From the NCBI GenBank assembly GCA_046765675.1, contig JBKPOR010000004.1, positions 7,740-71,739 on the forward strand: 64,000 nt of DNA, given 5' to 3'. Source of the stretch: Pseudomonadota bacterium (lineage in GTDB: Bacteria; Pseudomonadota; Alphaproteobacteria; Sphingomonadales; Sphingomonadaceae). Below the pieces are notes generated by a model that was not told the origin of the DNA, ran no database searches, and saw nothing but the letters and a program-made list of their open reading frames with translations. Both the position numbers and the translations under genes were made by a program. Shown here piece after piece: positions 57,038 to 59,149 of this stretch (positions are counted from its first letter, which is position 1; each line of letters starts with the position of its first letter).

Positions 57038-59149
57038 CTATTCAAACTCCACGATGACCTGATCGACCGCGAGGCTGTCGCCCGTTTTCGCCGGAGTAGC
57101 CTTGACCTTCGCCGCCCGGGGCGCACGGAGGATGTTCTCCATCTTCATCGCTTCCATCACCGCGACCGGCTGGCCGGGCTCGACCTTGTCACCGACCGCG
57201 ACGTCGAGGCGCGTCAGAAGCCCCGGCATGGGCGCCAGCAGCAGCCGCGACAGATCGGGCGGCGGCTTGTCGATCATATGTTTCGCCAGGTCCGCGACGT
57301 GCGGCGCAAGCACTTGCACCTTGTGCGTTCGCCCGCGGGTCTGAAGCTCCCAGTTGCGGCCGGAGCGGCGGACCTGGACGATGTGGTGGCGGCCGTCGAC
57401 TGTCACCGAGAGCAGCCGCTGCCCCGGCACCCAGCGGCCGATGATGTCGATCAAATCGCCGCCATCCAAGACCGCGAGCGTTCCGCCGATGTACGGCTTG
57501 ATCCGCACCTTGTGCTGTTCGCCGGAGCCTGCCCCGGACCCCGATCCGGGGATCTTCACGATCCGGTCGCACGACATGTGCGTGCGCGGGCCGAGCTGGC
57601 CGTCGATCTCCGCTGCGCGCTCGTCGGTGATCGTCGCGACCATGCCGGCGATGACGGCGAGGTCCTCGATCAATTGCGCGTTCGCTGGCGCGCCGTTGAA
57701 CCCCTCCGGATATTCCTCGGCGATGAAGCCGGTGGTGATGTCGCCCGAGCGGTAGCGCGGATGCTGCATCAGCGCGGAGAGGAAATCGACATTGTCGCTG
57801 ATGCCGTCGACCACGAACGCATCGAGCGCCGCGACCTGTGCGTCGATCGCCTGTTCGCGGGTCGGCGCCCAGGTGACCAGCTTGGCGATCATCGGGTCGT
57901 AGAACATGCTGACCTCGCCCCCGTCGGCGACTCCGTCGTCAACCCTCACCCGTACCTCGTCATTGCGAGCCCCGAAGGGGCGTGGCAATCCAGCCTTTGC
58001 GCCGCTGGATTGCTTCGTCGCTGCGCTCCTCGCAATGACGGCTTCGGTGGGCTTTGGAGGTTGATACCGCACCAGCCGCCCGGTGCTTGGCAGGAAGTGG
58101 CGATACGGATCCTCGGCATAAACGCGCGTTTCGACCGCCCACCCGTCGAGCTTCACATCGTCCTGGGAGAACGCCAATTTCTCGCCCGCCGAGATGCGGA
58201 TCATCTGCTCGACGAGGTCGAGGCCGGTCACTTCTTCGGTTACCGGATGCTCGACCTGCAGGCGCGTGTTCATCTCGAGGAAGTAGAAGCTCTTGCCGGT
58301 CGGGTCGGCGCCGTTGACGATCAACTCAACCGTGCCCGCGCTGTAATACCCAACCGCCCGTGCCAGCGCGACAGCCTGCTCGCCCATCGCCTTGCGCATC
58401 TCGGGCGAGACGAACGGCGACGGCGCTTCCTCGACCACCTTCTGGTGGCGGCGCTGGATCGAGCATTCGCGCTCGCCCAGAGAGACGATGTTTCCGTGCT
58501 GGTCGCCGAGGACTTGGATCTCGATGTGCCGCGGCTGCTCGATGAACTTCTCGATGAAAACGCGGTCATCGCCAAAGCTGCTCAGGCCTTCGCGCTTCAC
58601 GCTGTCGAAGCCTTCGCGCACGTCCTTCTCATTGTAAGCGAGGCGCATGCCCTTGCCGCCGCCGCCGGCCGAGGCCTTCATCATCACCGGAAAGCCGATG
58701 TCCTTTGCGATCTTCACCGCCTCAAGCGTGGTCGCGATGTCGTCGAGATGACCGGGGACGACGTTGACGCCGGCCTTCTGCGCGAGCTTCTTGGACTCGA
58801 TCTTGTCGCCCATCGCGGCGATCGCCTTGGGCGGCGGTCCGATGAAGGCGATCTTCGCCTTGGCCAGCGCCTTGGCGAAGCTCTCGCGTTCGCTGAGGAA
58901 GCCGTAGCCCGGGTGCACTGCCTCGGCACCGGTCGCCTTGCATGCGTCGATGATCAGTTCGGCTTTGAGGTAGGATTCGGACGCGGGCGGCGGGCCGAGC
59001 CGAATGCTTTCTTCGGCCATCTTCACATGCGGTGCGCGAGCGTCGGCGTCGGAATAGACCGCGACGGTCTTGATCCCCATGCGACGCGCGGTGCGGATCA
59101 CCCGGCATGCAATCTCCCCGCGATTGGCGATCAGGATCTTCTTGAACAC
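57038..59149 (-). CDS. pccA: Propionyl-CoA carboxylase alpha subunit (biotin carboxylase + biotinyl domain) with in-frame palindromic insert
   Basis: ILIANRGEIA, HPGYGFLSE, GGGGKGMR, EMNTRLQVEH, YDPMIAKL, EAMKMEN motifs; located with mce/scpA/pccB. Confidence 0.93.
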   Translation of the reverse strand: MFKKILIANRGEIACRVIRTARRMGIKTVAVYSDADARAPHVKMAEESIRLGPPPASESYLKAELIIDACKATGAEAVHPGYGFLSERESFAKALAKAKIAFIGPPPKAIAAMGDKIESKKLAQKAGVNVVPGHLDDIATTLEAVKIAKDIGFPVMMKASAGGGGKGMRLAYNEKDVREGFDSVKREGLSSFGDDRVFIEKFIEQPRHIEIQVLGDQHGNIVSLGERECSIQRRHQKVVEEAPSPFVSPEMRKAMGEQAVALARAVGYYSAGTVELIVNGADPTGKSFYFLEMNTRLQVEHPVTEEVTGLDLVEQMIRISAGEKLAFSQDDVKLDGWAVETRVYAEDPYRHFLPSTGRLVRYQPPKPTEAVIARSAATKQSSGAKAGLPRPFGARNDEVRVRVDDGVADGGEVSMFYDPMIAKLVTWAPTREQAIDAQVAALDAFVVDGISDNVDFLSALMQHPRYRSGDITTGFIAEEYPEGFNGAPANAQLIEDLAVIAGMVATITDERAAEIDGQLGPRTHMSCDRIVKIPGSGSGAGSGEQHKVRIKPYIGGTLAVLDGGDLIDIIGRWVPGQRLLSVTVDGRHHIVQVRRSGRNWELQTRGRTHKVQVLAPHVADLAKHMIDKPPPDLSRLLLAPMPGLLTRLDVAVGDKVEPGQPVAVMEAMKMENILRAPRAAKVKATPAKTGDSLAVDQVIVEFE
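57958..58040. repeat. REP/RPE-like palindromic element, family A, inserted in frame in pccA
   Basis: CGTCATTGCGAG...GCAATCCAG...CTGGATTGC...CTCGCAATGACG; the same conserved blocks as the intergenic copies at 61772 and 62272. Confidence 0.92.

Follow-up and report, generated by a model that had tools for sequence, protein, structure and literature searches.

An in-frame palindromic repeat in the propionyl-CoA carboxylase of a sphingomonad lies in a loop occupied by many unrelated repeat families

Palindromic repeats that sit in frame in functional genes and add a surface peptide to their products have been described as Rickettsia palindromic elements (RPEs; Ogata et al. 2000, cited in PMC3733652). 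A related group is formed by the CGTC-tagged repetitive extragenic palindromes (REPs) compiled by Di Nocera, De Gregorio and Rocco (2013, BMC Genomics 14:522; PMC3733652), which are mostly alphaproteobacterial, with sphingomonads included, occur mostly as head-to-head dimers with the tags outside, and have no dedicated transposase; in the same work, Rickettsia RPE-4 was equated with CGTC-4 and RPE-6 with CGTC-1. Here, we analyze an 81-bp palindrome located in frame within pccA, the gene for the alpha subunit of propionyl-CoA carboxylase (PCC), in a 64,000-nt stretch of a sphingomonad genome. This whole stretch is referred to as the window, and coordinates are window positions; loci are coded L### and genomes G###, with G000 being the genome under study. 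An earlier note had described the palindrome as an RPE-like, multicopy repeat inserted into a loop of a core enzyme, with a strong hairpin inside the coding sequence, and this description was supported by the results reported below (40 copies in the genome; −56.6 kcal/mol). The same note held that such cases are rarely documented in free-living alphaproteobacteria, which calls for correction, given that for Sphingomonas wittichii and Sphingopyxis alaskensis the supplement of PMC3733652 lists CGTC REPs located in frame within genes, and that at least four more genes of G000 carry in-frame repeats. Its main omission was recurrence, since the loop is a repeated landing site for many unrelated repeat families.

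As judged from its sequence, the repeat family to which the pccA palindrome belongs (family A) has the hallmarks of the CGTC-tagged, head-to-head dimer type. As in the published repeats, the CGTC tag is outermost, the first stem bases are AT and a CCA tail is present; the family-A unit reads CGTC-AT-TGC...GCA-AT-CCA-G, in agreement with the AT-start and CCA-tail criteria in the text of PMC3733652. Both groups also share a mostly intergenic location near gene ends and the lack of a dedicated transposase, and the intragenic dimers of CGTC REPs likewise code for 20–30 residues. They differ in that a CGTC REP unit has its own stem of 8–9 bp and a loop of 4–5 nt, whereas a family-A unit alone pairs over about 5 bp (ATTGC/GCAAT), the long pairing of family A being formed between the two units. 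A stem and loop of the published dimensions are found in the units of a second family, B, present in congeners (CGTCATCCCCGC-GAAA-GCGGGGA-CCCAG), whose pccA inserts code for RHPRESGDP and SRFRGND. These are the peptides given for CGTC-1 in PMC3733652 (CHSRESGDP, HSRFRGND, VIPAKAGI), and they match the R. conorii CGTC-1 (RPE-6) peptides in its supplement. Neither the family-A peptides nor propionyl-CoA carboxylase appear in the list of intragenic cases of that paper, and a full-text literature search with the family-A sequence yielded no relevant paper.

With regard to RPEs, family A appears to work like them, the likeness being one of behaviour. The insertion is consistent with an RPE-like, in-frame event at a surface position, with the frame intact and the modelled fold confident except for the insert. 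The setting differs from that of the RPEs as these are presented in PMC3733652, in that the host is a free-living, GC-rich sphingomonad and many unrelated families share one loop. Bacterial miniature inverted-repeat transposable elements (RU/ERIC-type, Delihas 2007, PMC2759123; Coxiella, PMC5896051) are also small, non-autonomous, bounded by terminal inverted repeats, and sometimes intragenic and translated. Membership of family A in this class was rejected: its copies do end in terminal inverted repeats, but the sequences flanking them form inverted and not direct repeats, no target-site duplication was found, and no parent insertion sequence is known. Two further assignments were discarded, namely a GTAG-type REP moved by a RAYT (the tag is CGTC and no Y1 transposase was found in the genome) and Br-REP1 or Br-REP2 of Bradyrhizobium, whose sequences differ from family A. 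The kind of element is already known from CGTC REPs and RPEs; what is new is a hot spot used by many families, together with the near-invariance of the stems.

The PccA loop as a recurrent insertion site

The location of the palindrome on codon boundaries, as given in the earlier note, was confirmed by the sequence and the ORF (open reading frame) translation: its 81 bp are exactly codons 371–397 of pccA, and the protein reads ...RYQPPKPTEA-VIARSAATKQSSGAKAGLPRPFGARND-EVRVRVDDGV across the insert. The strongest match of this protein in the PDB was to 3n6r, a PCC alpha chain (E = 4.8e-239). Folding of the insert region in the mRNA gave a shuffle z of −3.7 for the energy cited above; no terminator-like tail or site was found at the insert, and an Rfam search of 57000–63000 retrieved nothing relevant. 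An assembly artefact can be discounted, since the isolate Sphingomonas sp. RB56-2 (L198) shows this arrangement as well, on a contig of 2.59 Mb; another cultured carrier, Sphingomonas segetis YJ09, has family B.

The PccA loop was read in 204 sphingomonad loci, with loop DNA considered palindromic at a shuffle z ≤ −3. The ancestral state of the loop is 13 residues, as in the outgroups, and the 'empty' alleles of Sphingomicrobium and Allosphingosinicella, those of congeners included, have 17, compared with 43 in the window; the loop is therefore short in relatives without an insert, as had been anticipated. Loop DNA was significantly palindromic in 50 of the 204 loci, falling into 12 sequence clusters; 11 family-A loci had been fetched on purpose, and leaving these out gives 39 of 193. 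Most of the loop families were also present outside pccA in other loci and are thus dispersed repeats. In addition to simple inserts, the loop holds nested composites, with one family within another (L035, L171 and L140), and remnants with an internal deletion (L131, L177 and L044).

Phylogenies calculated with the loop masked indicated at least 17 changes of insert state in a 97-taxon tree and 24 in a 53-taxon tree of the Sphingomicrobium clade. In the latter, family-A alleles occur in every subclade, as well-supported sisters (SH-aLRT 86–99) of empty, B, F and G alleles. The number of state changes could be overestimated if alleles recombined, yet recombination cannot remove 12 distinct families. 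Family A is also found in two other genera, and across the three genera it lies 0, 1 or 5 residues after the PP motif; these differing positions in the loop mark the inserts of the two other genera as independent hits. A described parallel is recB of Xanthomonas (PMC3733652), where related species carry different REPs at about the same place; that case, however, comprises two species, whereas the PccA loop shows its clusters and state changes across the order and has a paralogue as control.

The junctions between filled and empty alleles were not clean, and even near-identical proteins differ by replacement of the whole loop. Families A, B and K have common CGTCAT...ATGACG ends and a common 3′ junction, ATGACGA. 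A native GTCATC-CGGGTC-GATGAC in L032 was considered as a mimic of the element ends and dropped, as it is confined to a single allele. The 17-residue empty loops (L010, L011, L017, L032, L033, L036, L116–L118 and L120) end in ...(K)R(D/E)(E/D)D(L)V..., and these ends (...KRDEDLV...) align without gaps to the 3′ end of the element, ...ARNDE(I/V)V...; L032 has CGC-GAC-GAG-G where filled alleles read CGC-AAT-GAC-GAG-G. Such loops could be the footprint of an excision or deletion, or could reflect microhomology used at insertion. A different state is seen in the Novosphingobium/Erythrobacteraceae clade (L059–L095 and L139–L158), where a conserved, non-palindromic loop of 21–26 residues, VPGWTDDGAENGRRGVDGV, occupies the same position; this may go back to an early insertion that is no longer palindromic and has been fixed as protein sequence.

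The loop stood apart both from the rest of PccA and from the paralogous MccA. Only one in 175 full-length PccA sequences (L100) carried a repeat-like insert outside the loop; it comprises 35 residues, SSGRPEPVDGREAQSDALAEKRPSTGSGQTGVEET, near residue 585 in the BT-domain region (−59.9 kcal/mol), in a gene that also bears an insert in the hot-spot loop. The comparison with MccA drew on a single even sample, with roughly one genome for each genus. PccA alignments broke at the loop in nine genomes, and seven of the eight inserts fetched were palindromic (z −3.8 to −8.4). This contrasted with MccA of the same genomes, in which none of seven long loops at the homologous position was palindromic (z −2.4 to +0.7), a difference with a Fisher p of about 0.008–0.015 on approximate denominators.

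The two enzymes also differ in architecture, since the alpha subunits make no mutual contact in the PCC holoenzyme, while they interact in MCC. An AlphaFold2 model of the window PccA built with 106 diverse sequences (mean pLDDT 87.7, pTM 0.88) matched PCC alpha chains with TM up to 0.87–0.91. In line with the loop location suggested by the earlier note, residues 373–391 were the only long segment of low confidence (pLDDT <50), located between the strands 361–363 and 400–405. A different and unrelated insert, AAGPLLVNGKWQGDAPSGEAA, about 22 residues long, occupies the same point in the crystallised PCC alpha of Ruegeria pomeroyi (3n6r; aligned to residues 366–400 of the window PccA), and the M. 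extorquens enzyme has none at this loop. A metagenomic locus, L189, harbors an insert resembling that of 3n6r, the DNA of which is not palindromic (z = −1.5).

Conservation of the element and competing explanations

About 80 of the 120 closest PccA homologues have VIA(RS)..KQS...GL(L/P)R..ARND at the same place. The clean 27-residue gap that the earlier note expected against orthologues was thus found in a minority of congeners and in more distant relatives, but most close orthologues share the insert, and the event is therefore neither private nor recent. DNA of 16 insert-bearing orthologues was compared for diversity of the element. Junction and frame were identical in 15 of them, and the element was 72–87 nt long, always a multiple of three. 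Pairwise diversity over 40 stem nucleotides was 0.013 (0.000–0.011 in the terminal arms and 0.014–0.028 in the inner stems), compared with 0.36–0.37 at flanking four-fold degenerate sites and 0.06–0.09 at second codon positions; the flanking protein was 77–93% identical. Within the 5′ terminal arm, diversity at third codon positions was 0.000. Since synonymous positions in the arms are just as invariant, the constraint acts on the stem nucleotides and not on the peptide. The spacer and the loop of the mini-hairpin varied freely, the spacer both in sequence and in length, the latter always by steps of 3 nt, and no compensatory changes or covariation were found in the 16 orthologues, the few stem changes being uncompensated singletons. 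The constraint is specific to the sequence and not merely structural; it could be the outcome of purifying selection or, alternatively, of short-patch conversion from other copies. The best explanation of the distribution is that the insertion is at least as old as the common ancestor of the Sphingomicrobium-like clade.

The pccA copy was also intact in G013 and G021, each of which has only three exact-terminus family-A copies. Its inner stems were perfect in 13 of the 16 orthologues, compared with 23 of 39 paralogues within G000 (p = 0.13). The intergenic copies of the window behaved differently: the copy at 61773 had no conserved counterpart at the matching site of 11 congeners, only one of these 11 had anything at the 62273 site (a degenerate half-copy), and the intergenic spot beside mce was filled by different families in different congeners.

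Taken together, we consider it probable that the insert is selfish DNA tolerated in a uniquely permissive PccA loop, its peptide being a passenger translated as a disordered surface loop. One copy of a dispersed, non-autonomous CGTC-type palindromic repeat would have landed in the DNA for a solvent-exposed loop of the biotin-carboxylase domain and survived there because the reading frame was kept; it would be transcribed and translated as a disordered excursion of 27 residues that leaves the fold undisturbed. After its founding, many lineages would have kept the insert and others deleted it, and unrelated families would have replaced or followed it. The loop would collect elements because it is structurally permissive: with no contact between PCC alpha subunits, insertions there would survive, while those elsewhere in the gene or in MccA would be purged. 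Such survivorship is the best-supported reading, to which targeting of resident hairpins may contribute. Of the two fates proposed earlier, selfish DNA that is either tolerated or domesticated, tolerance was supported and domestication was not: what is conserved is something other than the peptide, and loss or replacement of the insert has occurred many times.

Several observations weigh against this explanation. Stems about 28 times more conserved than neutral sites are not accounted for by pure neutrality, which also leaves the intact copies of G013 and G021 unexplained. The nested composites, together with the re-use of the intergenic site, indicate that elements also land on or beside earlier ones, and tolerance and targeting are not cleanly separated. 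The denominators of the MccA comparison are approximate, and the presence of the segment in mRNA and protein is deduced from sequence. Orthology of the pccA copies rests on their shared junction; similarity of spacers was rejected as proof of it, because the spacer type CGGCGCAA is frequent throughout the family and occurs in unrelated copies.

The conservation of the stems invites a reading in which the host has co-opted the embedded hairpin or its exact sequence, for mRNA decay or translation pacing in the pcc-scpA-mce genes or as a site for a REP-binding protein, with purifying selection maintaining it. The contrast between stems (0.013) and neutral sites (0.36) while both loops of the structure vary, the intact copy where the family is nearly extinct, its persistence beside intergenic copies that turn over fast, and the closeness of the pccA orthologues to the consensus, which equals or exceeds that of the paralogues, would all fit. 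Nevertheless, we regard co-option as distinctly unlikely: close lineages lost the insert or swapped it for unrelated sequence many times, most PccA genes lack any insert, the stem changes show no covariation, neither a terminator-like tail nor an Rfam match is present, the edge over paralogues is not significant, and the pattern could also be accounted for by short-patch gene conversion, with other copies as donors. It is highly improbable that the 27 residues themselves are a selected, functional surface addition that serves, for instance, in regulation or in a new interaction. Orthologues do conserve the residues encoded by the arms, VIARS.ATKQS and GLLRSARND, but the synonymous positions of their codons are equally invariant, which points to constraint at the nucleotide level; moreover, the spacer-encoded residues vary in sequence and number, the insert is modelled with pLDDT <50, and sister species have unrelated peptides at the same place.

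Targeting of the loop, in which elements prefer an existing hairpin or CGTC/GACG tag, or replace a resident through shared termini, so that a founder seeds later arrivals, is a doubtful but appreciable possibility as the principal cause. It would explain the nested composites, the ends and 3′ junction common to families A, B and K, and the succession of families beside mce in different congeners, and REPs are mobile-element targets according to work cited in PMC3733652 and PMC5082802. However, junctions shift by several codons within the loop, as with the three positions of family A relative to the PP motif, many families have no termini in common, lineages with the ancestral 13-residue loop gained inserts too (L050/L051 and L042/L055), and the MccA loop of the same genomes has none. 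A further idea, which we hold to be rather unlikely, is that the PccA loop is a long-lived safe harbour, where a frame-locked copy, carried by a core gene that is inherited vertically, is protected against deletion and stays constrained in sequence, serving as a family reservoir that re-seeds the genome or as a hairpin or protein-binding site used by the host. If true, it would explain why the stems stayed almost unchanged across a divergence large enough to saturate a third of neutral sites, and why a copy survives where its family is almost extinct.

Family A and other in-frame repeats in the genome

The genome assembly comprises 2.48 Mb in 244 contigs, with 63% GC; going by the names attached to the nearest homologues of its PccA, G000 belongs to a Sphingomicrobium-like sphingomonad. 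The pattern GTCATTGCGAG-N40-70-CTCGCAATGAC had three matches in the window (57959, 61773 and 62273), compared with none in 100 shuffles, and the two intergenic copies reported earlier at a distance of about 4 kb were hence recovered (Table 1). Permitting one mismatch per terminus, 40 full family-A copies were found genome-wide. Their parts are terminal arms of 11 nt, inner stems of 9 nt, a spacer that varies, and two side arms, of which as a rule one measures 9 nt and the other 15–17 nt with a mini-hairpin; the pccA copy is atypical in that both are long. All 40 have the head-to-head arrangement with tags outward. The base immediately outside the ends is G in 73 of 80 flanks, which indicates that the true termini are C-GTCAT...ATGAC-G; counting these flanking bases, the pccA element spans 57958–58040. 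The family-A ends read CCGTCAT...ATGACGG, with AT as first stem bases and the CCA tail. No direct target-site duplication was found at family-A copies, whose flanks are inverted (C...G, often CC...GG). No match to a Y1/RAYT transposase (PF01797) was obtained in the 244-contig assembly, in which positive controls responded, although this absence is not absolute.

Table 1. Features of the pccA locus and further repeats in G000 (window positions, or contig and position where a contig is named)
Feature	Position	Strand	Remarks
pccA, propionyl-CoA carboxylase alpha subunit	57038–59149	minus	703-aa ORF; BC, BT and BCCP domains
Family-A palindromic element, CGTC-tagged REP head-to-head dimer type	57959–58039	minus	In-frame residues 371–397, VIARSAATKQSSGAKAGLPRPFGARND
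Terminal inverted arm GTCATTGCGAG	57959–57969		Pairs with 58029–58039
Side arm	57970–57984	+ strand reading	
Inner stem GCAATCCAG	57985–57993		Flanks spacer on left
11-nt spacer	57994–58004		Codes for variable peptide part SGAKAG
Inner stem CTGGATTGC	58005–58013		Flanks spacer on right
Side arm	58014–58028	+ strand reading	
Terminal inverted arm CTCGCAATGAC	58029–58039		Pairs with 57959–57969
Intergenic family-A copy, 67 bp	61773–61839		Just past start of methylmalonyl-CoA mutase ORF (59616–61754, minus)
Intergenic family-A copy, 80 bp	62273–62352		Far side of small gene at ~61850–62260
In-frame insert, MurD	C164:9795–9887		
In-frame insert, 1200-aa hydantoinase/oxoprolinase	C178:7184–7279		Between A and B halves
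In-frame insert, penicillin-amidase-family protein	C37:1689–1759		~10 residues before GSN nucleophile
Two in-frame inserts, ImuB-like polymerase	C60:5904–5994 and 6703–6771		

Ten other family-A copies were spanned by long ORFs, six of which were run through Pfam and four judged by translation alone. Four of the six had no match, look like wrong-frame, GC-rich artefacts and were rejected, while the other two are genuine genes starting at the end of the element. The copies at C36:30347–30419 and C82:8488–8560 end exactly at the start of a signal peptide, in a TPM-domain protein and in the lipoprotein-like MTKSTLRLALVLLVAAC, respectively. In both, the ATG of the family-A terminus ...CGCAATGAC is the only plausible start codon, and the element may provide start codons; the same terminus, read in another frame, gives a TGA stop. 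The outward flank consensus of the 40 copies is G-G-C-T-(A/T)-A-G (i.e., ...TAGCC|GTCAT), which places many copies 2 nt from the stop codon of a neighbouring gene, on either side.

With respect to the count of in-frame coding insertions proposed earlier, at least four further genes of G000 carry in-frame palindromic repeats, all of families other than A, in proteins whose domains were confirmed by Pfam (Table 1). The insert just before the GSN nucleophile falls in the excised spacer of the penicillin-amidase-family protein. A genome-wide palindrome scan at −35 kcal/mol gave 128 hits, mostly ordinary coding DNA at this too loose cut-off, and only hits with recognisable repeat peptides were taken further. 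Elsewhere in the window, a palindrome of an unrelated family was observed at 55251–55368, with 54-nt arms that are 74% complementary. Its right arm holds the ATG at 55338 that opens a 542-aa ORF for an AMP-binding acyl-CoA synthetase; the predicted N-terminus, MVPLPVPGRI, would thus be repeat-derived, and the true start may lie downstream.

Meaning of the locus for protein evolution in sphingomonads

In-frame palindromic repeats are a proposed route from selfish DNA to new protein sequence, and the pccA locus constitutes a rich natural experiment on this route in a free-living, culturable group. Among close relatives, a single loop of a core enzyme is found empty, with at least 12 different inserts, with nested inserts and with decayed remnants, and the order of insertion, retention, internal deletion and replacement can accordingly be read from sequence. 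A position of PCC alpha that tolerates 20–55 extra residues would also be useful for tagging or engineering. Lastly, the locus raises the question of what holds REP stems invariant.

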